Of a stretch of DNA of 64,000 nt, positions 12,464 through 55,749 are shown one piece after another (the stretch's first letter is position 1; every line of letters starts with the position of its first letter). Source of the stretch: Phage NC-G; the sequence record MK310184. One strand, 5' to 3'. A program made the position numbers and the translations under genes. Below the pieces are notes generated by a model. The model searched no databases. It saw only the letters and a program-made list of their open reading frames with translations, and was not told the origin of the DNA.

Positions 12464-12604
12464 TTACCATACTAGTGAATGAATAACCATAATAACATCG
12501 GAAATAAAAAGCACAACTTGGATAAGACCGAATATTACTCCATAATACAGTGCTACAAATAAAGCAGCAAGGGCTACAGAGTAGCCCAAGATTTTCTTAA
12601 TCAT
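12464..12604 (-). CDS. Small hydrophobic membrane peptide, 46 aa (ac-like position)
   Basis: MIKKILGYSVALAALFVALYYGVIFGLIQVV...; start overlaps the stop of the upstream ORF, stop lies 5 nt before the gene 52 start. Confidence 0.5.
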   Translation of the reverse strand: MIKKILGYSVALAALFVALYYGVIFGLIQVVLFISDVIMVIHSLVW

Positions 12605-21912: not shown

Positions 21913-21961
21913 GTTATTTCCTCATGTAGTAGGAGAATATTATCCCATTTCACTTAAAGCA

Positions 21962-39305: not shown

Positions 39306-40199
39306 CTAGCATACTACGTCCTCATAACGTGGCATTTCGTATTCAGAATGAATATTGGCACCGAAATAAATGAATTCAGCCAGACCAGGATGAAATACTA
39401 AACCTGGGTTCTCATGATAAATGATATGTGGTCTTGATTTCAGAATTTGATAATATTCAACCTTACTCGGTTTGAATTTAATAATCTCTACATCAGGACG
39501 ATAGTCTTCACGTTTAAATGAATCGTTAGGGTCGGTGATATAAAGACGAGCACCTTCAGCCGCAGCTTGGTCTACAACTCTTTCGAATTGATAACACTTA
39601 TCTGAAATACGGAACGGATGGAAAATACCATCAATTTTAATAGGCGCTAGACCTTCAGAGTAACGCTCAATTACTGCCGGATTAATTACCTTTTGGTCTA
39701 CAAAAATTTTATCAGAGGATGCACCTCGTGACACCAGGACGTCTTTCTGGCATTGATTCAGCACTGTAGTATAAAGTGAACGTTCAACTGAAGCCACATC
39801 AATATCAATGAACTCGTCGATATAATAACGAGGAACTTCAGGGTCCATTGTGATATTAAAGTTGAATTGTACAGTATGAGCGCCGTCATAACCGGTGATA
39901 TCGGTTACTAGTCCTGAGCAATCATAGTATTCGATTAGAGAATCGACTACAAACTCGTTTTCAGACCAGAAATGTTTACGGGTTTCATAAGCATTTTCTT
40001 TATACCAAAGTGGTACGAAATTCAGTTCTGGGAATAATTCAATGCATTCTTTGATATCGCTCGAATTTCTAGGATAAGCCAGATAATCACCTGGACGAGC
40101 ACGATTTAAATGGAGTTGAAAATTACCGTCCTTAAGGACGGCATATTCACCTGTTTCGTAACTACGCATACTGAAAATAGGAACGATAAACAGACTCAT
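39306..40199 (-). CDS. Hypothetical protein at the beta-glucosyltransferase position; candidate DNA-modifying transferase
   Basis: 297 aa; no recognisable similarity to T4 beta-gt (351 aa); last gene of the coupled operon with gene 42; contains a DxD-like FIDIDV. Confidence 0.35.
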   Translation of the reverse strand: MSLFIVPIFSMRSYETGEYAVLKDGNFQLHLNRARPGDYLAYPRNSSDIKECIELFPELNFVPLWYKENAYETRKHFWSENEFVVDSLIEYYDCSGLVTDITGYDGAHTVQFNFNITMDPEVPRYYIDEFIDIDVASVERSLYTTVLNQCQKDVLVSRGASSDKIFVDQKVINPAVIERYSEGLAPIKIDGIFHPFRISDKCYQFERVVDQAAAEGARLYITDPNDSFKREDYRPDVEIIKFKPSKVEYYQILKSRPHIIYHENPGLVFHPGLAEFIYFGANIHSEYEMPRYEDVVC

Positions 40200-40894
40200 T
40201 TCAGGAAACCTCGGACGTAGTCAAAATCACGTTCAAACACGTGTGCACTTACCATGGTGTGGGAATACGTACCTAAACCGACACCACACTGTTCAGCAAT
40301 AAATGCCATCAGTTTACCCTGCAGATAGAAATCCAGTTGCATAACAACAGCGCAGTTTTGTGAACGCATATGGGTATGTGCATACAAACGTCCGTCACGG
40401 ATATAATACGTCACCGAATCAGTGCATGGATATTCTAAGGATTCGTCAGAATCAAGGAGGGCTTGGTCTTGTTCTTGGAGAATCTGGAACACAACTCTTC
40501 GCGAGTTAGCCTTTTCTTTAAGCTCTTTAAGTAGGGCTGGGAGTTGGGCCACAATTCGAGGTCCATAGAAAGTGTTGAAGTTTGCAGGCAATACGTCACT
40601 TTTCGGCTTATCAATGAACTTAGCAACATTAGGATATTCCTTAAATGCTTCGGCAGCGTCAGTACCACCAGAAATCATAAATTTCCAAAAGGATTCGGCA
40701 TATTCGTAACTAATACGATTGATACGTGGGTCGGTGAATTTATAGGTGCTGGCATCCAGTACTTCTATCGAAGCAGAACCAATTTCATAACAACGTCCGA
40801 TACGAGAATCAACTGCAAACTGCGGAGCTTCCAGGATTTCTTCGTTCATTTGTTTAAATGCATTTTCAAAACTAACAGCGGTAATGTGTTTCAT
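40196..40894 (-). CDS. 42: dCMP hydroxymethylase gp42 (thymidylate synthase family)
   Basis: 232 aa; catalytic-site block PCTDSVTYYIRDGRLYAHTHMRSQNCAVVMQLDFY versus T4 MCTNTVQYLIRDKKINAVVNMRSNDVVFGF (from memory). Confidence 0.8.
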   Translation of the reverse strand: MKHITAVSFENAFKQMNEEILEAPQFAVDSRIGRCYEIGSASIEVLDASTYKFTDPRINRISYEYAESFWKFMISGGTDAAEAFKEYPNVAKFIDKPKSDVLPANFNTFYGPRIVAQLPALLKELKEKANSRRVVFQILQEQDQALLDSDESLEYPCTDSVTYYIRDGRLYAHTHMRSQNCAVVMQLDFYLQGKLMAFIAEQCGVGLGTYSHTMVSAHVFERDFDYVRGFLK

Positions 40895-41427
40895 TTATTC
40901 ACCTTATTTTCAATATATTCGTTCAGACGTTTTAATTCTACCATATCAACATTAAGCAAATTATTATGGCCGTCATGATTTAAGATTTTAAACACGTTTT
41001 CAAAACATGTTTCGTATTGCCGGATAGTTAGGTTGAACTCATCTTTGGTTAATTTAATAAGGTCGTCTTCAAAGTCTTCATCTAATGGATTACGAGTTAA
41101 AATAACCTCGATAACATTAAATTCGGATTTAAACCCTTTCCAATCTTCCAGTTCTACATAAGGGTCCATTTCACCACGAAGGAATCCTGAGTAAACAATA
41201 TTACTTGGATAACCGCGGTCAAGGATGTAGACGAAATTAGGGTCTAAAAACTTATACAGAGTTTCAACTAAGGCCTTATCGTTATCAGTTCCTAATGAAA
41301 TACATTTACCATTAATCTTTTTAGGAAAATCAATAAGACGATATTTCTTATCGGATAACAGATTTTTAATTAAAGTAGACTTCCCGGAATTATCCGGGCC
41401 GTCTATAACAATGATTTTTGGATTCAT
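40891..41427 (-). CDS. P-loop kinase, thymidylate/dNMP-kinase-like
   Basis: 178 aa; Walker A IIVIDGPDNSGKSTL; DRGYPSNIVYSG resembles the Tmk DR(Y/H)xxSxxAY motif. Confidence 0.55.
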   Translation of the reverse strand: MNPKIIVIDGPDNSGKSTLIKNLLSDKKYRLIDFPKKINGKCISLGTDNDKALVETLYKFLDPNFVYILDRGYPSNIVYSGFLRGEMDPYVELEDWKGFKSEFNVIEVILTRNPLDEDFEDDLIKLTKDEFNLTIRQYETCFENVFKILNHDGHNNLLNVDMVELKRLNEYIENKVNK

Positions 41428-41807
41428 GGATGATAGGCCTTATAACTATCAAGAGTTCCTTCACGAACCATTTCTTTAAAGTGGTCAGGACGGATTGCTC
41501 GGTCATCGATGATAAAAGTATAACTCGGCTTGTGTGTAAGCAAATTGTGGTATTTCAATCCAATTTTTTCAAGGTTCTTAACCAATGCAGGAACTACTTC
41601 AACCAAGATTCGACCTGGGCCACATGAAGTCATGCCACGGGCGGTGAACAATGTAATCTCGTACCCTTCATCATAAAGCTTATTAATCATGGACACCATT
41701 TCGGTGTCCGGTTTAAAGTTCTCATAATCACGGTCATGGTTCCAAATCGTGATTGTGTTATCGATATCAAAACATAAATGTGGCTTATTTTCTACTCGAT
41801 GCGACAT
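41424..41807 (-). CDS. HAD-superfamily phosphatase, small capless type
   Basis: Motif I FDIDNTIT, motif II ITLFTARG, motif IV FIIDDR; start at MSHRVENK overlapping the upstream stop by 1 nt. Confidence 0.55.
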   Translation of the reverse strand: MSHRVENKPHLCFDIDNTITIWNHDRDYENFKPDTEMVSMINKLYDEGYEITLFTARGMTSCGPGRILVEVVPALVKNLEKIGLKYHNLLTHKPSYTFIIDDRAIRPDHFKEMVREGTLDSYKAYHP

Positions 41808-43480
41808 TAAATTTTCTTCCATTGTTTGTGGAGTTCAGTAGAACCTGTAGGTTTATATTTTACACCAGTTTCCTGGTCAAGCAAAACCCACTTATCAGGA
41901 CAACGAGTAATAATTTGAGCCGTAATAGGGTCACGAACTTCATCGACAAATTCACCAGTAATAAGCTTACGCTTACGAGGATGCCGCTTCAGCAGCACAC
42001 TCAGTTGGTACAAACCGTTATAATAAGCACCTAGAGCTTTCAGAGGGTTATTCTTAAAGTAACCTGCCAGAGCCATCCAAATAACAGCAATCCAGAGCTT
42101 GTGCTTAAATGTGCACATAGGAATATCGTCTAAAGGCATAACCTTTTCAATATCAACGAACACACGAGTCCCATTACGAGTTAAGCCACCCCATAGAGGG
42201 TCTGAGTTAAATTTGTCATAGCCATCGATAGAATAAAGCACCTTAGCTTCATCATAAATCGCAGGGCCTTTAGAACTATTACCGAAATAACCACGTGGGT
42301 CGATGATTTTAATATCACCTTCATCTGACAGCATAATATTACTGTAGTGTGGGTCGCCATGAATAAGTTGGTACGGCTCTTTATGTTCAGACAGAATTTC
42401 TAATGCATGGCGGAGAAGTTTTTCAGGGTCGCCTACCTTGAAGTCATTAACGTGGGTAATGCCTTGTGGAGCAAAGCCTTCAATCAATCCGGCAATAGAA
42501 GCATTACGAATAAGGACCTTGTCCAATACTTCTTTCTTAACATCGGAATACCATTGCTCATCGGACGGGTTATCGATAGTTCCACCGAATGAACGTAATG
42601 CACTAATGACCTTATAAACCATGAGGACTTTAGTTTCTTTAGACATAAACCGGTAGGCATCTGCCATGGTACGACCAAAGATACGTTCCATTTTAATGAA
42701 TTCGCCTGGAGAAAAGTCTACAATGCTAGGAACGAATTCAGAATCAATAGAATTATACCAATTGATTTCTTTAGATTGAATTTCTTTACCTAATTCGTTA
42801 GTTGGTACTTTAATGGCCAGATTCTCGGTGAACTCTAATTTATTAAATTCACGGTTAATTTCAGATTCTTCATGGGCTTTAGCCAGTTTCAATTTGTCAC
42901 CGACATCAACTACAAAGTCCAGTTTACGTTCAGTCAAATAGACCATTGAATCCAGGTTATCAGCAAGGTCTTCGCCATAATTAGAACGGTCGAAACCTGT
43001 CCAATTGGCTACCTGATACAAACCAACTACGCCACCACCCGTACCAATTTCACGTAAGTACGGTTCTTCAAATGTAAAGCGACAGTCAGTTCCATAGGTA
43101 TAACAGTAGTCGTTACCCCATTCAACTTTATGACCAATAGGAATGATGTCACACCAGTTAAACAAGACATTATGGCCAATGATATCTTCGGCAATGCAAT
43201 CAATAGCATGAGCTGAACCATTAGCAACGTCAACGTTACGAATAGTGAATTTAGGCTTATCACCAGTAATCATGTTAATGGATTTAATATAGCCTTTAAC
43301 GAGGTCGTTAAATTTGCTGTGAATAACCAGAATAATTTCATCTGATTGGTTACTATACAAATCATACAAATGCTTTAATACCGTATGTTGTTTGTAGTTA
43401 ACCAATACCTTCGGGATTTCGTTAGTAATTGGATACAACCGTGAGCCAAGACCCGCGCCTAAAATAACAACCTTTTTCAT
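41807..43480 (-). CDS. Bifunctional sugar-1-phosphate nucleotidyltransferase / protein-kinase-like phosphotransferase
   Basis: N-terminal VVILGAGLGSRLYPITNEIPKVLV (RmlA/GlmU/LicC-type); C-terminal LIHGDPHYSNIML...IKIIDPRG (APH/choline-kinase-type); start at MKKVV after GAGGA. Confidence 0.6.
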   Translation of the reverse strand: MKKVVILGAGLGSRLYPITNEIPKVLVNYKQHTVLKHLYDLYSNQSDEIILVIHSKFNDLVKGYIKSINMITGDKPKFTIRNVDVANGSAHAIDCIAEDIIGHNVLFNWCDIIPIGHKVEWGNDYCYTYGTDCRFTFEEPYLREIGTGGGVVGLYQVANWTGFDRSNYGEDLADNLDSMVYLTERKLDFVVDVGDKLKLAKAHEESEINREFNKLEFTENLAIKVPTNELGKEIQSKEINWYNSIDSEFVPSIVDFSPGEFIKMERIFGRTMADAYRFMSKETKVLMVYKVISALRSFGGTIDNPSDEQWYSDVKKEVLDKVLIRNASIAGLIEGFAPQGITHVNDFKVGDPEKLLRHALEILSEHKEPYQLIHGDPHYSNIMLSDEGDIKIIDPRGYFGNSSKGPAIYDEAKVLYSIDGYDKFNSDPLWGGLTRNGTRVFVDIEKVMPLDDIPMCTFKHKLWIAVIWMALAGYFKNNPLKALGAYYNGLYQLSVLLKRHPRKRKLITGEFVDEVRDPITAQIITRCPDKWVLLDQETGVKYKPTGSTELHKQWKKI

Positions 43481-43539
43481 TATCTGTTCCTCAAGTGAAT
43501 GTAGGTACATTATACACTATTTTTAATAAATTCTATTGC

Positions 43540-44040
43540 TTAAATCTTATCTTTACCGTATTCCATACACTGTTCTACTGCAGCAGGCACTTTGGTCTTA
43601 AGCTTGTTGATTTGTTTCTTATAATCACGCGCCTTATCGAAGCTCTCGGTTTCGAGCATTTCGTAATAACGAGCCTCATGAATAGAAACCTGTAAATTGA
43701 TATGGTTTACACACATCGCATACAGTTTCTGCTTTTTGTACAAATCATCTTGGCGCTTCATTTCTGCCTGGTGTTTGGCTAGTACCGCTTCACGCTTAGA
43801 CTCTTGTTCACGTTGGAATTCGATTTCCCTTTGAGCATATTTTGCGCAGTTATTACCGCATTGATTATTAGCTCGGGTATACACAAGTCCAGAACCGGCA
43901 CGGAATTTCATTTCGCCATCGAATTGTTTCTGTTCGGCTGCAATACGAGCTTTACCAACTTCATCAGCTGAAACTGCATCACCGTATTGGACCGCGCAAC
44001 CTGATAGGAGCATACTCATTGCGATAATTAACTTTTTCAT
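43540..44040 (-). CDS. Putative lipoprotein
   Basis: 166 aa; signal peptide with lipobox LLSGC; Lys/Glu-rich coiled-coil C-terminal half. Confidence 0.5.
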   Translation of the reverse strand: MKKLIIAMSMLLSGCAVQYGDAVSADEVGKARIAAEQKQFDGEMKFRAGSGLVYTRANNQCGNNCAKYAQREIEFQREQESKREAVLAKHQAEMKRQDDLYKKQKLYAMCVNHINLQVSIHEARYYEMLETESFDKARDYKKQINKLKTKVPAAVEQCMEYGKDKI

Positions 44041-44181: not shown

Positions 44182-44418
44182 TCATTGTTTAACGATAATG
44201 ATTTGTGCGTTTGATTTACGTTCAGCGACGATAGCCCAGATTAAAGCCACTACCCAACCAATCATCGTCCATCCTAACAGGAGATTAAGGAAGAAGATTC
44301 CGACATTGCTACGAGTGCCTCGCAGAAGAGCCAGAATCCATGGTAAAAAGTAACCAATGAACATAATAACCAGAGAACCGAATCCTAAAACACCAGCACT
44401 AACGATTAAAGCTTCCAT
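44182..44418 (-). CDS. Two-helix membrane protein at the imm position
   Basis: 78 aa with two hydrophobic helices; synteny directly upstream of gene 43. Confidence 0.45.
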   Translation of the reverse strand: MEALIVSAGVLGFGSLVIMFIGYFLPWILALLRGTRSNVGIFFLNLLLGWTMIGWVVALIWAIVAERKSNAQIIIVKQ

Positions 44419-49957: not shown

Positions 49958-50392
49958 TTAAGCAATTACGATCATTTGTTTACGGATTGATTCAGGCAGA
50001 GATTCAATATACTCTGGAATCTTGGAAGCAACAATGGCACCGGCTTCAAGCAACTGCTCATCAGGGTCGACGCAATAATCATCTTCTAAACGTTCAGAAC
50101 CGTCGCGGTCGATAACAAGTTTAGCACCTGCAGCCAAAGAATCTTTAAAGTGTTTACGCATGATTTCAATCCACTTATCAGATACATCATTATCGATGAT
50201 ACTGTACAGCATAAACTTGGTTTCTTGTGGAAGAGACTGCAGACGACGTGCAGAGTCGGTATCAATATTCAGTACCCATGATTTACGGATACGGTTCTGA
50301 TTATGTGGGTTGGAATCAGTACGGATGGTTTTAACTTGGATATCTTTAACGGTAACGCCATTAGAAGTAGCAAACATAATATTTTCTCTCAT
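49958..50392 (-). CDS. rpbA: Protein at the rpbA position (RNA polymerase-binding protein A)
   Basis: 144-aa ORF; synteny between 45 and 46. Confidence 0.45.
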   Translation of the reverse strand: MRENIMFATSNGVTVKDIQVKTIRTDSNPHNQNRIRKSWVLNIDTDSARRLQSLPQETKFMLYSIIDNDVSDKWIEIMRKHFKDSLAAGAKLVIDRDGSERLEDDYCVDPDEQLLEAGAIVASKIPEYIESLPESIRKQMIVIA

Positions 50393-50433
50393 TTAGTTGG
50401 TAAATGTATTATAAATCAATATTTTAAAGCAAT

Positions 50434-50625
50434 TTAATCAAAATACTCATAGACAAACCATGCTGGATTTCTATTTGACATGATTGTAACATATTCTGAC
50501 TTAAAAGCATTTTGGAGATATTCCTCAGTAACAAGATGTTCATCTCCAGAGAAGTTGTTAACTAAAACATATCTCTTTATTTCTGGAACGGCCAACAAAT
50601 GCTGGCCTGTTATAAAATCACTCAT
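50434..50625 (-). CDS. Hypothetical protein
   Basis: 63-aa ORF. Confidence 0.4.
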   Translation of the reverse strand: MSDFITGQHLLAVPEIKRYVLVNNFSGDEHLVTEEYLQNAFKSEYVTIMSNRNPAWFVYEYFD

Positions 50626-52304
50626 TCCATCACCGTGAATCGTCCAACTTTCTTCATTTGAAGATGTTGGCCATAAGCTTGTGGGTCATGGTCTCGGTGA
50701 GAGATAATGAACACGTTCGTATCCTCAAGGCTATTCAAGATGGTTGCAATGCTCTTAACGCCTTCAGCGTCGGTTGCACTGTCAAATACCTCATCAAGAA
50801 TCAGTGTGGATATATTAACACCTGATACCCTAGAAGCAATATCACGCCATGTAAAAAGTAGTGCGATATCAATACGTGCTTTCTCACCCTGTGAAAATGA
50901 AGCATAACTAAAGTCTTCACGTCCACGTGATTTAATCGTCTCATTGAATTCTTCGTCTAGAGTAAAGACGTAGTCCGCCTCCATAATCTTCAAATAAGAA
51001 TTAATCTGCTTATTAAAGATAGGAATGTATTTCTTAATAATAGAACCTTTAATACCAGTATCCTTCAACATTTCTGTCAGAATTCCACGATGATATTTTT
51101 CCATTACCAAGGACGATTTGGTAGAGACGATTTTATCAAGCTCTGCTTGAAGCGTAGCAATCTCTTCGGCATTACTTACGAACTCAGCTGCCGCTTGGTC
51201 AATTAATATCTTAACCTTTTTGGCTTTCTCTACAGCAGTAATAGCTTGCTGCTTATGAGTAGCTATCTGAGATTTAATAGCCAACGCTTTATTGCGTTGT
51301 TCGGTTACTTGGTCTTTAATGAGCTTGAGTTCTTGGTATTGCTCATTAATCTTATCCAAAGATTTTTGAAGCTCAAAGTTTTTATCCTTAATTTTGGTAA
51401 GGATGTTTCCATGCTCTTCTAATCCTTGCATACATGTAGGGCAGTGACCACCTGTTTCGTATAATTTAACCACCTTTGTAAAGGTCGCCATATCATTTTT
51501 GATTGCAAATCCTTTATTACTCAGGTCACTCATGGAGTCGCTAGGGTCATCATCTACGATAACATTGAGTAATTCATCAGTCAGAGATTCTATGCTCGCC
51601 TTCGCAGTCCTGGCTTCTTTAACGAGCTCATCATACATTAATTGTAGACGGGCAGCGTTTTCGCCAGATAATTTACGTTGACGTTCTTCGTTGTCATTAT
51701 AAATTTTAATTTGTTGGGTAATAGAATCTTGCTTAACATCTATTACTTGGATTTGGCTATTAGTCTCACGAATCAAAGATTTGTTTAACTTATCCATATC
51801 CGCTAATACAGAAACCTCTAAGAGGTCTTCGACGAGTTTTCTTCTTGCAGGAGTGGATAGGCCCATAAAAGGGGTATATCCAGCTGTGCCGAGTACGACA
51901 ATTTGTTTGAAGCTTGCATAGGACATTCCGATAAGCTGTTCAAATTCCGCTTGGAAGTCTTTACTGCTGGCAGATTCATCAAGACGTTCACCGTCACAAG
52001 AGATTTCAAAAACGTTGGGTTTTTGCCCGCGTTTGATATAGTATTCTTTGCCATCATATTCCATCCACAGTTCGACCAAAAGGTCTTTCTTGTTACTTGA
52101 GTTAATCAACTGCCCTTTCTTAACATCACGAAAAGGCTTACCAAACAGAGCAAATGTTACAGCTTCAAGGAATGTTGATTTCCCTGCACCATTTTTACCA
52201 GTGACTAAGGTCTTTTGGACCTTATCAAGTTGGATTGTAATGGGCTGCTGCCCTACCGACATAATATTTTTATACGTTACTTTTTTTAACTTAAAAGTCT
52301 TCAT
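50622..52304 (-). CDS. 46: Recombination endonuclease subunit gp46 (Rad50/SbcC-like)
   Basis: Start at MKTFKL; Walker A GKNGAGKST; long stretches match T4 gp46 from memory. Confidence 0.9.
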   Translation of the reverse strand: MKTFKLKKVTYKNIMSVGQQPITIQLDKVQKTLVTGKNGAGKSTFLEAVTFALFGKPFRDVKKGQLINSSNKKDLLVELWMEYDGKEYYIKRGQKPNVFEISCDGERLDESASSKDFQAEFEQLIGMSYASFKQIVVLGTAGYTPFMGLSTPARRKLVEDLLEVSVLADMDKLNKSLIRETNSQIQVIDVKQDSITQQIKIYNDNEERQRKLSGENAARLQLMYDELVKEARTAKASIESLTDELLNVIVDDDPSDSMSDLSNKGFAIKNDMATFTKVVKLYETGGHCPTCMQGLEEHGNILTKIKDKNFELQKSLDKINEQYQELKLIKDQVTEQRNKALAIKSQIATHKQQAITAVEKAKKVKILIDQAAAEFVSNAEEIATLQAELDKIVSTKSSLVMEKYHRGILTEMLKDTGIKGSIIKKYIPIFNKQINSYLKIMEADYVFTLDEEFNETIKSRGREDFSYASFSQGEKARIDIALLFTWRDIASRVSGVNISTLILDEVFDSATDAEGVKSIATILNSLEDTNVFIISHRDHDPQAYGQHLQMKKVGRFTVME

Positions 52305-52554
52305 CGTTATAAGCATCCTTGATGCATGATTCAGCCATATGAATTAATGTTTCTGGAGTATCATCTACCATTACATTAAAGCTAAATTCCACAGCCCAAT
52401 CGGTAGCAACATAAACTTTAATAAGCTCGCCGGTATCACGAGTGCTCACAGCTTCAAACCAGAACTTAATTGTACTAGGTTGGCCATCATCGTCAATAAC
52501 TATACAGTCGTGTTCCAGTTCAAGTCCCGATTTTTTGAATTCATCTAAAGTCAT
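52291..52554 (-). CDS. Hypothetical protein
   Basis: 87-aa ORF between 47 and 46. Confidence 0.45.
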   Translation of the reverse strand: MTLDEFKKSGLELEHDCIVIDDDGQPSTIKFWFEAVSTRDTGELIKVYVATDWAVEFSFNVMVDDTPETLIHMAESCIKDAYNDEDF

Positions 52555-53573
52555 CGTGTAACCTCATTATAAAGTTGTGCGGCCATAGTCTTAAGGGCTT
52601 TAACATCGTCTTCAGTGTGGCCATCAGGAAGGGCATCGATATAATCATACATCATATCCAAGAGGGACTTAACTTCATCTTCCTCTTCAGAATCATCGAT
52701 ATCAACGCTGTTATCTACCTTAGACACAATACGTAAAGAGTGAACAACCTTTTCAAGCTCTGATTCGAACTTAGTAAGCCCGTCATCGATTTTATCGACT
52801 ATAACACGAACTGCGATATTTGTAAAATCTTTGTAATCGATGGTTGCATTAGGATAATGAATCTTACGGTGCCAACAGGTTTCATTAATTACGAAATCCA
52901 TTTTATGCGTTTCGGTATCGAAAATCCAGAAGCCACGAGGGTCGTTCTCATCACCAGCAGTTAGAGTCCATGGGGTGCCAATGTACTTGACGTTTGCTGC
53001 ATCAGAAATAGTGTGGAAGTGACCAGACCAAACTTGCTTATACTTTTTAAGGAAATCAGGTTCTAAACCGTGAGATTTCATTCCTTTATAGAAATAGAAA
53101 CCATTTAATTCCCAGTGACCAATACAGAAATCTGCTGTAGTATTTTTGATATGTTCCATGATATCAGTCGTGTTTTCTTCACACATCCATGGAATCAAAT
53201 CAATTTCTGTGCCATCAAAGTTAACCGTAGTAGGTTTTTCAATAACCTTGATATGGTCATATTTACCCAGAACTTCAGAAGCCGCGTTCGGCGTCAGGGT
53301 ATTTTTGTAGTGGGCATCATGGTTACCAACGACCGTATACATGGTAATGCCACTTTCTTTAAGCAAATCCGAAATATGTCTAGCAAATTCCATGCACTTA
53401 TGGGTAATTGCTTTACGGACGTCAAAGATATCACCATACTGAATCCAAACCGTGATACCGTTTGCTTTAGAATAATTGATGGCGTCTTTAATGCCGGCTA
53501 ATTGAATATTCTGCACCCAAGGGTCATCGTTCTTCACTCCAAGGTGCCAGTCACCTGTATTAAGAATTTTCAT
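52551..53573 (-). CDS. 47: Recombination endonuclease subunit gp47 (Mre11/SbcD-like)
   Basis: Start at MKILNTGDWHLGV; calcineurin-like phosphoesterase motifs; about 340 aa as in T4. Confidence 0.9.
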   Translation of the reverse strand: MKILNTGDWHLGVKNDDPWVQNIQLAGIKDAINYSKANGITVWIQYGDIFDVRKAITHKCMEFARHISDLLKESGITMYTVVGNHDAHYKNTLTPNAASEVLGKYDHIKVIEKPTTVNFDGTEIDLIPWMCEENTTDIMEHIKNTTADFCIGHWELNGFYFYKGMKSHGLEPDFLKKYKQVWSGHFHTISDAANVKYIGTPWTLTAGDENDPRGFWIFDTETHKMDFVINETCWHRKIHYPNATIDYKDFTNIAVRVIVDKIDDGLTKFESELEKVVHSLRIVSKVDNSVDIDDSEEEDEVKSLLDMMYDYIDALPDGHTEDDVKALKTMAAQLYNEVTR

Positions 53574-54177
53574 TGCGTATTCGTTCCCACATTTTGGAGG
53601 CTGCTTTAGAAGCAGAGCCAGGAAGTTTACCTTTGACCCACCCATCAGGAATATTAGATGGATTAATCAGTTTATGTTCTATTCCGTTATTATACCACTT
53701 CCTGCCCTTATTATGACTAGATGCTTTATAATTAGGCGAACGGCCCTCTACATATCCTTCAGGAACCGTGGGTGCAAAGGTTTGTTCTAATGTAGCAGGA
53801 TTATAGGAATGGATATATCCCTTGGCATTATGAGAACCATAAAGAGGATGCTGTTCTTTAGGTAGCGAAAGCCCAAAGAACCCTTTAGGGGCTGCAATAG
53901 ACCTATTAAAGAACAGAGGGTTTTGAGCTGCATCCATTCTTAATTGGTACGTTCTTTCAGCTTCTAAAGCCTCTTCTCTTGTAGGGTGTTCACTTACAAT
54001 ACACGAGTCAAATAATTCAGGATGCTCTAAAAGCTCCTTGTTATAGATTTCTTTATATGCTTTAGAAAGAACACTCCCATGGTATCCTTTTAAATGCTTC
54101 TCTAAAGTAGTGGACCCTATATAAAACGGTGGAAGCTTAGTCCCGGAATATATTGTCAGGTATGTGATGTATTTCAT
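53560..54177 (-). mobile_element. Putative GIY-YIG homing endonuclease (Seg-like) at the alpha-glucosyltransferase position
   Basis: N-terminal YITYLTIYSGTKLPPFYIGST...H...E...YQ pattern; C-terminal NUMOD3-like GRKWYNNGIEHKLINPSNIPDGWVKG. Confidence 0.45.
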
Positions 54178-54204
54178 AGATTTATTTTATCATCCGAATA
54201 TAAA

Positions 54205-54228
54205 GCAAAAAAGGAGCCTAAGCTCCTT
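54205..54228 (-). terminator. Rho-independent terminator
   Basis: AAGGAGC-CTAA-GCTCCTT followed by TTTT on the minus strand. Confidence 0.5.
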
Positions 54229-54480
54229 TACCAACTAATACACCATACAGAGGTTCGCGATTAGACGTGAACTTGATTTTCTTATACGTAATAGTACCTT
54301 CATTTTCTGCTTTAATACGAGTGGCTTCAAATTGAAGTATCATCTCATTTTTGTCAGATTTAATCTTATCAAAATCCATCGAATTCGTCATTCATAAAAC
54401 CTCTTAAACTTTTTCGTATTCGTCATTCATAAGCTTAAAAATCCGGGTGTTCGTCTTTCATTAGCCACCTGTCCACGTTA

Positions 54481-54977: not shown

Positions 54978-55229
54978 TTAATCCTTTGGAGTCAATTCAA
55001 TAGTGAAGTAGAAATTAGCGTTCTCAACATGATAACGATAATCTACGTTATTGTCAGGAGAAGTGAATTCAATATTCCTGACGTTAAGTGGGTCAATATC
55101 AATAGGAAGGCCTTTAACATCTCGTAATATCAATTTAATAAAATAAGGGAGTGCTTCGAAGTCTTCCATTCCATCTAAAAGTGGAGTGATATTAATCTGA
55201 TGTTCCATATAAAAAATCCAGTTCACCAA
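54978..55229 (-). CDS. Hypothetical protein
   Basis: 83-aa ORF. Confidence 0.4.
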
Positions 55230-55749
55230 CTTTAGGTTCAGCGCTCTTATCAGACCCTGGTGCTTTAGTTAAAGAGGTTTCATACTGTGTCATTTTATCG
55301 TAGATATCTTGGATAAAGGTTTCATCTGCAATACCTACCATGTCGTCGTCATTAGCGTCATAAACGTTATGGACGAAGTAGCTGTATTTCTTTGCCATTT
55401 CTTTACGTTCTTTTTTGATACGCTGAACGAAGGCATTAAAACAAGCCATAGTGATATATGCATGTGGGTTGTCGTATTTTGTTTCGTCGAAGTTGTGAAG
55501 ACCTTTAATCGAAGCTTCGATTCCATCAGCAATCATTTCTTGCTTCCAGGATTGGGTATATCCTGAGAAGTTGAAACGCTTAGAAAGGCCTTCAGCAATG
55601 AGCATAATAGCCAAGCCGATAACGTCGTTCTGACGAACTATTTTATTAGGGTCGGTATTTTCTCGGAGCTCCGTTTTCCACTGGGTAATGGCTTTAAGAA
55701 GCTCCTTATTATTTACATAGTTATTTTTAGTCAGTTTAATTTCGGTCAT
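55192..55749 (-). CDS. 55: Late-transcription sigma factor gp55
   Basis: 185 aa, same length as T4 gp55; [15 protein letters not shown]...[58 protein letters not shown]. Confidence 0.9.

Follow-up and report, generated by a model that had tools for sequence, protein, structure and literature searches.

A probable Seg-type GIY-YIG homing endonuclease gene upstream of gene 47 in Phage NC-G

A 205-residue open reading frame (ORF) directly upstream of gene 47 in Phage NC-G (sequence record MK310184) most probably encodes a free-standing homing endonuclease of the T4 Seg type (GIY-YIG) and is most like SegE. We put the probability of this reading at roughly 70%, the homing step being argued by analogy with the characterised Seg proteins. 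The endonuclease belongs to a known family, of which it is an ordinary and as yet uncharacterised example, and will not surprise a specialist. Positions refer throughout to the 64,000-nucleotide stretch of DNA that was analysed (the window).

The gene (53560..54177, minus strand) runs from an ATG to a TAA (stop codon 53560-53562) and is matched by PHROG 10820 (E 3.6e-92); the ORF is real and intact. In the interval from gene 47 to gene 55 (55192-55749) no other ORF exceeds 103 aa, the remaining ones being a-gt.2, a-gt.3, a-gt.4 and a-gt.5, and the first-pass annotation had thus been right to place a Seg-like ORF at exactly these coordinates as the only sizeable one there. Its upstream neighbour is the homologue of a-gt.2 (54218..54391, minus; 57 aa), which carries DUF5486 (Pfam PF17588, E 6.6e-19) and is also matched by tblastn with T4 and RB69 a-gt.2. 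Downstream lies gene 47 (52551..53573, minus), which encodes the 340-aa SbcD/Mre11-like recombination nuclease subunit, with a Metallophos domain, a match to PHROG 100 and 70% identity to T4 gp47; its true start, read from the sequence, is the ATG at 53573. By the same direct reading, the final four sense codons and the stop codon of the endonuclease gene overlap the start of gene 47 by 14 nt. All genes there are on the minus strand, and the endonuclease gene is intergenic, between a-gt.2 and gene 47, and borne by neither an intron nor an intein. With the a-gt.2 terminator and a middle-promoter-like site on one side and gene 47 on the other, it fills the slot of T4 gene 47.1, a tiny gene directly upstream of gene 47.

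The catalytic GIY-YIG domain occupies residues 1 to about 97 (53887..54177, minus). In the AlphaFold model (pLDDT >93 across residues 1-95) the N-terminus folds as helices and a sheet of three strands, two of which, GIY and YIG, pair as a hairpin. A structure search of the PDB gave the I-TevI catalytic domain as the best match, and the next four were also GIY-YIG nucleases, so that the GIY-YIG-like N-terminus suggested at first pass is borne out by the fold, as it is by the family profile, which matches the Seg proteins. All of 34 homologues have Y6, Y19-I20-G21, E74 and N91. In the hhalign alignment to I-TevI, YIG falls opposite YVG and E74 opposite I-TevI E75; H33 aligns with I-TevI H40. The superfamily arginine (I-TevI R27) has no clear counterpart: hhalign puts a nine-residue deletion there, and the family has no invariant arginine after YIG, the nearby position 28 (K28 here) being mostly K or R. 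T4 SegA-E have the same GY.GS arrangement, and the active T4 Seg proteins are also without a clear R27 counterpart. The match to Pfam PF01541 (GIY-YIG) scores 16.8 bits (E 0.0084), short of the gathering score of 22.6; the shortfall reflects sequence divergence and is outweighed by the evidence of fold and motifs. NCBIfam gave no match, and a search of PDB chain sequences with the 205-aa protein alone returned chance matches only; the fold comparison was needed because sequence and profile searches of the PDB gave chance or weak matches.

When T4 proteins were scored against the family profile, SegE reached 50.8 bits, followed by SegC (23.7), SegG (21.3), SegA (20.2) and SegB (15.0). BLASTP aligned the endonuclease with SegE at 29% identity over 194 aa (E 2e-10), with both C-terminal repeats covered. 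RefSeq and PHROG 10820 label the family as HNH endonucleases, an assignment for which these labels are the sole support and to which we give practically no credence. There is no HNH match in Pfam, the T4 Mob proteins, which are HNH enzymes, score at or below noise against the profile (<=8.7 bits: MobC 8.7, MobE 5.7, MobB and MobD near zero), and the fold and motifs are those of GIY-YIG enzymes. The PHROG 10820 and RefSeq entries should be renamed as GIY-YIG/Seg-type homing endonucleases.

The nuclease domain is followed by a linker (53824..53886, minus) modelled at low pLDDT (57-74), with a vestigial NUMOD3-like start (PKEQHPLYGSHNAKG, residues ~105-118). This segment aligns with the beginning of the NUMOD3 (PF07460) motifs found in many homologues; what is left is a truncated start only (HPLYGSHN), Pfam NUMOD3 gave no match at E <= 0.1, and the family profile matched the I-TevI DNA-binding domain (1i3j) weakly (E 0.057). 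NUMOD3 is thus at most vestigial, and the NUMOD3-like C-terminus of the first-pass annotation holds for this short stretch; the remainder consists of SegE-like repeats plus a helix. The repeats are two in tandem (53620..53823, minus) of about 30 residues each, starting with KG and ending in VPEGYVEGR and IPDGWVKGK (consensus ending [VI]P[ED]G[YW]V.G[KR]), and both are predicted to form beta-hairpins (strands 122-135 and 160-171, pLDDT 82-94). The repeat call rests on manual alignment, the alignment to SegE and the structure model; BLAST of one repeat against the other, which are too short for it, produced no alignment. The repeat module, common to T4 SegE, is a putative DNA-binding module. The protein ends in a helix (SASKAASKMWERIRNENS; 53563..53619, minus; residues 188-204 in the model).

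At the end of a-gt.2 a terminator scan identified an intrinsic-terminator-like hairpin, AAAGGAGC-TTAG-GCTCCTTT followed by TTTTT (54210..54229, minus), which is unchanged in 6/6 aligned Dhakavirus sequences. Between this hairpin and the gene lies a match to the T4 middle promoter (54184..54207, minus), with the MotA box TGCTTTA, 11 nt and TAAAAT, which stops 6 nt short of the endonuclease ATG. The pattern search matched 8 sites in the window, where 1.5 would be expected, and four of the five on the minus strand closely precede the start of a gene (52, 39, the ORF at 49958-50392 or the endonuclease). The site is also kept before the slot in the endonuclease-free phage WG01. Its consensus match suggests a promoter, the transcript of which would be nearly leaderless for the endonuclease gene. 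No recognisable Shine-Dalgarno sequence precedes the gene, and this, together with the predicted nearly leaderless transcript, makes expression of the endonuclease uncertain. A sigma-70 promoter scan showed no enrichment relative to shuffles, and no late-promoter TATAAATA was seen by eye within 53500-54420.

Among the Dhakaviruses the endonuclease is present in QL01, IME540 and IME08, the IME08 copy being unannotated. WG01 has 47.1 in its place, and Bp7 has lost the gene by a precise deletion between two ATGTATTTCA repeats. AnYang is without it, as is RB69, a Mosigvirus. In KIT01 and vB_EcoM_005 the C-terminus is swapped for a longer, different one. Full-length homologues immediately precede gene 47 in six genera (Dhaka-, Tequatro-, Mosig-, Jiaoda-, Winkler- and Biquartavirus). 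The lineage shows clear signs of a cycle of invasion, domain-swap and deletion. When IMG/VR was scanned with the family alignment, which gave 80 loci, most relatives matched in the nuclease domain only and were located elsewhere; at three loci gene 47 follows directly and is co-oriented, and at two a nearby gp47 homologue is oppositely oriented. These loci contributed little beyond the GenBank phages.

The first-pass annotation had also located the gene at the alpha-gt locus. The corresponding explanation is that the endonuclease gene displaced alpha-gt, its presence thereby being tied to the loss of glucosylation. T4 alpha-gt does lie in the same 47-55 interval and the window is without alpha-gt; the comparative data nevertheless contradict such a replacement, which we regard as very improbable. 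Homologues with 58-63% identity occupy the same site in Tequatrovirus fPS-90 and Jiaodavirus KP185, both of which have an intact alpha-gt next to it, the endonuclease-free phages WG01, AnYang and RB69 are without alpha-gt as well, and the gene replaced is 47.1. The two facts are therefore independent and the location near T4's alpha-gt place is a coincidence. The further observation that neither T4 glucosyltransferase is recognisable was upheld: tblastn of T4 alpha-gt and beta-gt gave best E values of 0.027 and 0.27, respectively, in the window, and of 0.05 for alpha-gt and no match at E <= 1 for beta-gt in the complete genome of QL01, the nearest relative (~95% identity at the tested locus).

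The 5' end of gene 47 (53214..53573, minus) is a mosaic tract linked to the endonuclease allele, and is a candidate for both the co-conversion tract and the target region. Between Dhakavirus haplotype groups, the first 120 nt of gene 47 are 73-82% identical, and 60-nt bins within the first 360 nt fall as low as 48%; within a group, identity over the first 150 nt is 91-99%. Every pair, whatever its groups, shows 94-100% identity from nt 400 onwards. A similar pattern is seen in the gp47 proteins of Mosigvirus LF82-4 and RB69 (64% identity over aa 1-50, 100% from aa 130). Each endonuclease allele is linked to its own diverged gene 47 5' end, and this linkage, with the sharp return to high identity, would fit co-conversion of flanking sequence as an indirect sign. 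The diverged tract is not always present, since just four changes, all synonymous, separate the endonuclease-carrying Tequatrovirus fPS-90 from the endonuclease-free T4 over the initial 120 nt of gene 47. The endonuclease lineage offers an explanation for the 5' end of gene 47 as a mosaic hot spot.

Gene 47 is the probable target gene. Characterised Seg genes adjoin the gene they cut, with co-conversion and marker exclusion as the result (PMC2988022). On the analogy of SegA, SegE, SegF and SegG, the enzyme would, when an endonuclease-free relative infects the same cell, cut both strands of the relative's DNA, in or near the 5' third of its gene 47 or at the 47.1/47 junction. The break would be resected and repaired with the endonuclease-carrying genome as template, and the repair would copy the endonuclease gene together with flanking gene 47 sequence, a co-conversion that would be seen as localised marker exclusion. 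Sequence differences in the 5' tract would shield the endonuclease's own allele. The marker exclusion anticipated in the first-pass annotation is, on the same analogy, a reasonable expectation in localised form.

The gene is under strong purifying selection as judged from sequence comparison with QL01 and IME08 (dN/dS ~0.05, range 0.05-0.06, at dS ~0.3, over the whole protein). A decaying pseudogene is ruled out by the intact ORF and the dN/dS of 0.05. An unlikely alternative is a relic or domesticated protein that is kept but immobile and no longer cleaves or homes, being retained through its overlap with gene 47 or its promoter position, or through a regulatory role of its DNA-binding part. 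The 14-nt overlap with an essential gene and the place right behind the promoter-like site could favour such keeping, the superfamily arginine lacks a clear counterpart and there is no Shine-Dalgarno sequence; retention through embedded promoters has been discussed (PMC2988022). However, the remaining catalytic-site residues are all invariant, the low dN/dS holds for the whole protein including the nuclease domain, Bp7 shows that the gene can be cleanly deleted without harm to gene 47, and the allele-linked mosaic flanks and the spread over six genera point to recent mobility. It is also rather improbable that the nuclease serves another end, such as attack on competing phages or parasites or the degradation of cytosine-containing host DNA, with homing as a side effect. 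Strict linkage to one locus across genera and allele-specific flanks are what self-propagation predicts, many sister phages live without the gene, and the protein has no sequence similarity to EndoII.

The absence of the glucosyltransferases is real but is already explained by a cytosine modification cluster of the RB69 type. The RB69-type arabinosyl-5-hydroxycytosine cluster was published in 2026, with Dhakaviruses listed as syntenic carriers (PMC13326640). At the 'beta-gt position' the window encodes a 297-aa GT-B glycosyltransferase (39306..40199, minus), the orthologue of RB69 gp46:47 (65-70% identity); the RB69 protein is the proposed first arabinosyltransferase. Neither Pfam, NCBIfam nor a profile search of PDB sequences matched the 297-aa protein, and its GT-B fold was revealed by structure search only. 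The protein at this position had been called non-homologous to beta-gt, which is true at the sequence level, but structurally it is a GT-B relative. The position of T4 gene 42 is taken by a ThyA-family enzyme of the 5-hydroxy-dCMP synthase type (40196..40894, minus), with 79% identity to RB69 gp48 (5-hydroxy-dCMP synthase) compared to ~24% to T4 gp42, and with an RSQN motif, the D169N signature of the 5-hydroxy-dCMP synthase class (PMC13326640). The rest of the arabinose-activation cluster (40891..43510, minus; Pfam and PHROG matches) comprises a P-loop kinase (40891-41427, minus; 38% identity to RB69 gp45), a HAD phosphatase (41424-41822, minus; 62% to RB69 gp51) and a nucleotidyltransferase-kinase fusion (41807-43510, minus; 41-44% to RB69 gp52:53).

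The likeness to RB69-type arabinosylation thus lies in orthologues within the same uvsX-to-43 block, the D169N signature and the GT-B fold. Given a ThyA homologue of the 5-hydroxy-dCMP synthase type, the phage is predicted to use arabinosyl-5-hydroxycytosine, and probably not an hmC derivative; of the alternative hmC modification proposed at first pass, the alternative modification is probable and the hmC base probably mistaken. RB69 gp3 (second arabinosyltransferase), gp50 and gp55 (arabinose-5-phosphate isomerase) have no homologue in the window or the whole QL01 genome. Compared with RB69 the cluster is reduced, apparently to one transferase and no phage-encoded isomerase, which suggests a simpler, possibly mono-arabinosyl, product dependent on the host isomerase. 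The reduced cluster is a prediction for DNA chemistry that is relevant to restriction and CRISPR evasion by therapy-candidate phages.

A broader and doubtful reading, which we offer as speculation, is that the gene 47 Seg lineage crosses T4-like genera with different cytosine adducts, namely glucosyl-hmC in Tequatrovirus and Jiaodavirus and arabinosyl-5-hydroxycytosine in Mosigvirus and Dhakavirus, and probably also in Winklervirus. If so, recognition must be indifferent to major-groove sugars, since the adducts are bulky and differ between the genera among which the lineage moves. The lineage would also repeatedly overwrite the N-terminal third of gp47, which bears the active site, and the exchangeable C-termini (a short helix or a longer domain) would act as retargeting devices. 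The gp47 protein is itself the Mre11-like nuclease that resects the breaks on which homing depends. If true, the lineage would offer a natural setting in which to study how endonucleases recognise hypermodified DNA and how they diversify an essential repair nuclease.

This would be the ninth or so Seg-type lineage for which a home site is defined, in this case upstream of gene 47 in six genera; an endonuclease at gene 47 is unmentioned in the T4 mobile-element review (PMC2988022) and in the nuclease-boundary paper (PMC10448857). The 47-55 interval is an endonuclease landing zone in T4 too, where mobB sits between alpha-gt and a-gt.2, but mobB encodes an HNH enzyme without similarity to the one described here. 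I-TevI is encoded by the td intron, unlike the present endonuclease, which is not intron-encoded, is without a zinc finger, a confirmed NUMOD3 helix or a helix-turn-helix, and in the hhalign alignment lacks the helix bearing R27. SegF and SegG, which cut genes 56 and 32, respectively, are weakly similar to it; SegA cuts uvsX (PMC2988022). SegE, encoded between inh and uvsW, cuts the uvsW of relatives (PMC2988022), whereas the gene here is at a-gt.2/47, the target is presumably different and the divergence is too great for orthology. In both, by contrast, a protein of 205 aa begins with a GIY-YIG domain with GY.GS, continues with two ...NG....[IV]P[ED]G[FWY][VI]KG[RK] repeats, and is encoded by an intergenic gene directly upstream of, and co-oriented with, a gene of DNA metabolism (PMC2988022).

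Across the region from gene 47 to gene 55, the DNA of the window matches that of Dhakavirus (JS98-like T-even) phages at 93-95% identity, the nearest being QL01, IME540 and IME08. Gene 46 (50622-52316, minus strand) is followed by 46.2, gene 47 and a 205-aa ORF, and these by a-gt.2, a-gt.3, a-gt.4, a-gt.5 and gene 55, all on the minus strand. ORF analysis confirmed the 205-aa ORF reported in the first-pass annotation (53560-54177, minus strand) and its status as the sole sizeable ORF between genes 47 and 55; the same interval in T4 holds 47.1, alpha-gt, mobB (an HNH homing endonuclease) and a-gt.2 to a-gt.5. Direct reading of the sequence places the gene 47 start codon at ATG 53573, and gene 47 therefore overlaps the last four sense codons and the stop codon of the 205-aa ORF by 14 nt. 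Gene 46.1 is missing from the window, where gene 46 runs directly into 46.2 (junction 52291-52316); this junction is alike in KIT01, vB_EcoM_005 and AnYang, and has ~200 nt extra in QL01, IME08, Bp7 and T4.

The 205-aa protein gives only a sub-threshold match to Pfam GIY-YIG and is assigned in PHROGs to phrog_10820, labelled 'HNH endonuclease'. In an alignment of 34 homologues, however, Y6, Y19-I20-G21, E74 and N91 are invariant and constitute the GIY-YIG signature, and the N-terminal domain has a confident AlphaFold model. When the family profile was compared with all T4 endonucleases, SegE was the top match (50.8 bits), followed by SegC, SegG, SegA and SegB. An HNH identity was rejected, the Mob (HNH) proteins scoring at most 8.7 bits, at or under noise. 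T4 SegE shares 29% identity with the protein over 194 residues, C-terminal half included (BLASTP). No clear counterpart of the superfamily's conserved Arg was found in the 34-homologue alignment or with hhalign, as is likewise the case for the active T4 Seg enzymes. The C-terminal half begins with a linker, continues with two ~30-residue repeats (ending VPEGYVEGR and IPDGWVKGK), each modelled as a beta-hairpin, and closes with a terminal helix. The NUMOD3-like C-terminus proposed earlier holds in part, in that the linker has a truncated NUMOD3-like start; Pfam NUMOD3 itself was undetected in this protein and is present in many relatives that share the nuclease domain only. The SegE match and the invariant GIY-YIG residues bear out the proposal of a Seg-like GIY-YIG homing endonuclease. 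Strong purifying selection acts on the gene (dN/dS 0.05-0.06 at dS ~0.3, against QL01 and IME08).

Upstream, a terminator scan identified the a-gt.2 terminator hairpin (54229-54210, minus strand), which is invariant in all six aligned sequences. It is followed by a match to the T4 middle promoter (54207-54184, minus strand; MotA box TGCTTTA, 11 nt, TAAAAT), which is shared with the endonuclease-free WG01 and ends 6 nt short of the endonuclease ATG. The pattern occurs eight times in the window, compared with 1.5 expected, and four of the five minus-strand copies lie just upstream of gene starts, the other three preceding gene 52 (12542-12566), gene 39 (21937-21961) and ORF 49958-50392 (50408-50431). 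No Shine-Dalgarno sequence was seen in the sequence read upstream of the endonuclease gene. This absence and the promoter-like spacing suggest that expression may be weak or unusual, which is common among T4 free-standing endonucleases (PMC2988022). The conserved K-W-Y-N-N codons (53690-53700, minus strand) read TGGTATAAT, which resembles an extended -10 element and lies ~120 nt ahead of gene 47; this may be an embedded promoter or no more than a coincidence.

No homologue of T4 alpha-gt or beta-gt was detected by tblastn in the window or the complete QL01 genome, in agreement with the first-pass annotation. The link drawn there between the endonuclease and the missing glucosyltransferase is refuted: fPS-90 and KP185 carry alpha-gt beside the endonuclease, and WG01, AnYang and RB69 lack alpha-gt although they are endonuclease-free, so the two are unrelated. 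The protein at the beta-gt position (297 aa, GT-B), previously taken to be unrelated to glycosyltransferases, is 65-70% identical to RB69 gp46:47, the proposed first arabinosyltransferase (PMC13326640). It belongs to an RB69-type cytosine arabinosylation cluster (39306-43510) between uvsX and gene 43, whose other members include a P-loop kinase, a HAD phosphatase and a nucleotidyltransferase-kinase fusion. The earlier assumption that the modified base is hydroxymethylcytosine is probably wrong as well. The ThyA homologue of the cluster is 79% identical to RB69 gp48 and 24% to T4 gp42, and reads RSQN, compared with RSND in T4 gp42 and RS.D in thymidylate synthase; it is thus of the D169N type by which RB69 gp48, a 5-hydroxy-dCMP synthase, is recognised (PMC13326640). 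RB69 DNA carries arabinosylated 5-hydroxycytosine (Lee et al., NAR 2026, PMC13326640), and Dhakaviruses are listed among the phages with a syntenic cluster (PMC13326640); the modification system is already described. For RB69 gp3 (the second transferase), gp50 and gp55 (arabinose-5-phosphate isomerase), neither the window nor the whole QL01 genome has a homologue, and because of this we infer a simpler modification, possibly mono-arabinosyl, that would depend on host arabinose-5-phosphate. Between the cluster and DNA polymerase gene 43 lie genes for a 166-aa protein (43540-44040; phrog_1754, function unassigned) and an imm homologue (44185-44418); in RB69, by contrast, imm is elsewhere.

The endonuclease locus is polymorphic, as judged from a six-phage junction alignment and annotations (relatives' loci carry L numbers and their own coordinates). 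The 205-aa gene is carried by the window, QL01 and IME08. In IME08 (NC_014260; L002 2036-2653) it is intact yet unannotated, and the annotated gp47 has an over-long N-terminus that extends into it. The KIT01 and vB_EcoM_005 allele is near-identical to that of QL01 over its first ~160 codons and has a different, longer C-terminus. Alleles of KIT01 (L007 1369-2139), vB_EcoM_005 (L008 1369-2124), LF82-4 (L010 1798-2613) and avDM5 (L012 1801-2550) share the nuclease domain and repeats but differ at the C-terminus, where they carry another, longer domain (whole proteins 251-271 aa). These same-site alleles look like products of modular swapping of the DNA-binding tail. WG01 has a T4-like 47-codon gene 47.1 in place of the endonuclease gene, and AnYang and RB69 have no endonuclease gene at the locus. 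Bp7 has lost the gene, in what looks like a clean case, by deletion between two ATGTATTTCA repeats with the start-codon region retained; of these repeats, one lies at the start of the gene and one close to the 3' end (Bp7 L003 ~2069-2100, compared with KIT01 L007 1369-2139). The a-gt.2 of Bp7 is present and unannotated. QL01 has two further endonuclease genes, both beyond the region that the window covers: one between genes 19 and 20 (L020 10308-10889) with the same nuclease-domain type (49% identity over 110 aa), also labelled 'HNH endonuclease', and an annotated homing endonuclease between genes 3 and 2 (L019 34117-34767).

In six genera, a full-length homologue (47-96% identity) directly precedes gene 47: Dhakavirus, Tequatrovirus (fPS-90), Mosigvirus (LF82-4), Jiaodavirus (KP185), Winklervirus (LC53) and the Aeromonas Biquartavirus (avDM5). 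Among Dhakaviruses, every pair of gene 47 sequences shares 94-100% identity from nt 400 onward, whereas the first 120-360 nt divide into three groups that track the endonuclease allele. Over the first 150 nt, members of one group are 91-99% identical and those of different groups 68-80%, with single 60-nt bins of the 5' tract as low as 48%. The gp47 proteins of the Mosigviruses LF82-4 (with the endonuclease) and RB69 (without it) are 100% identical from residue 130 and 64% identical in residues 1-50. At the sequence level, this mosaic is the footprint expected of homing with co-conversion. Tequatrovirus provides a counter-example: only four synonymous differences separate fPS-90 from T4, and these are grouped at nt 9-18 of gene 47. 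Between the window and WG01 there is a comparable cluster (53556-53565, codons 3-6), tight, synonymous and set in otherwise identical flanks; clusters of this kind separate pairs with and without the endonuclease in two genera. The cluster may mark a candidate recognition site; it may reflect target-site immunity, or constraint from the overlapping endonuclease frame.

The endonuclease gene adds a new, uncharacterised member to the Seg family, and its home site is well defined. The mosaic footprint suggests that the target of the enzyme lies towards the 5' end of gene 47 or at the 47.1/47 junction, and this would fit the rule for Seg enzymes, that the neighbouring gene is cut (PMC2988022, Table 1).
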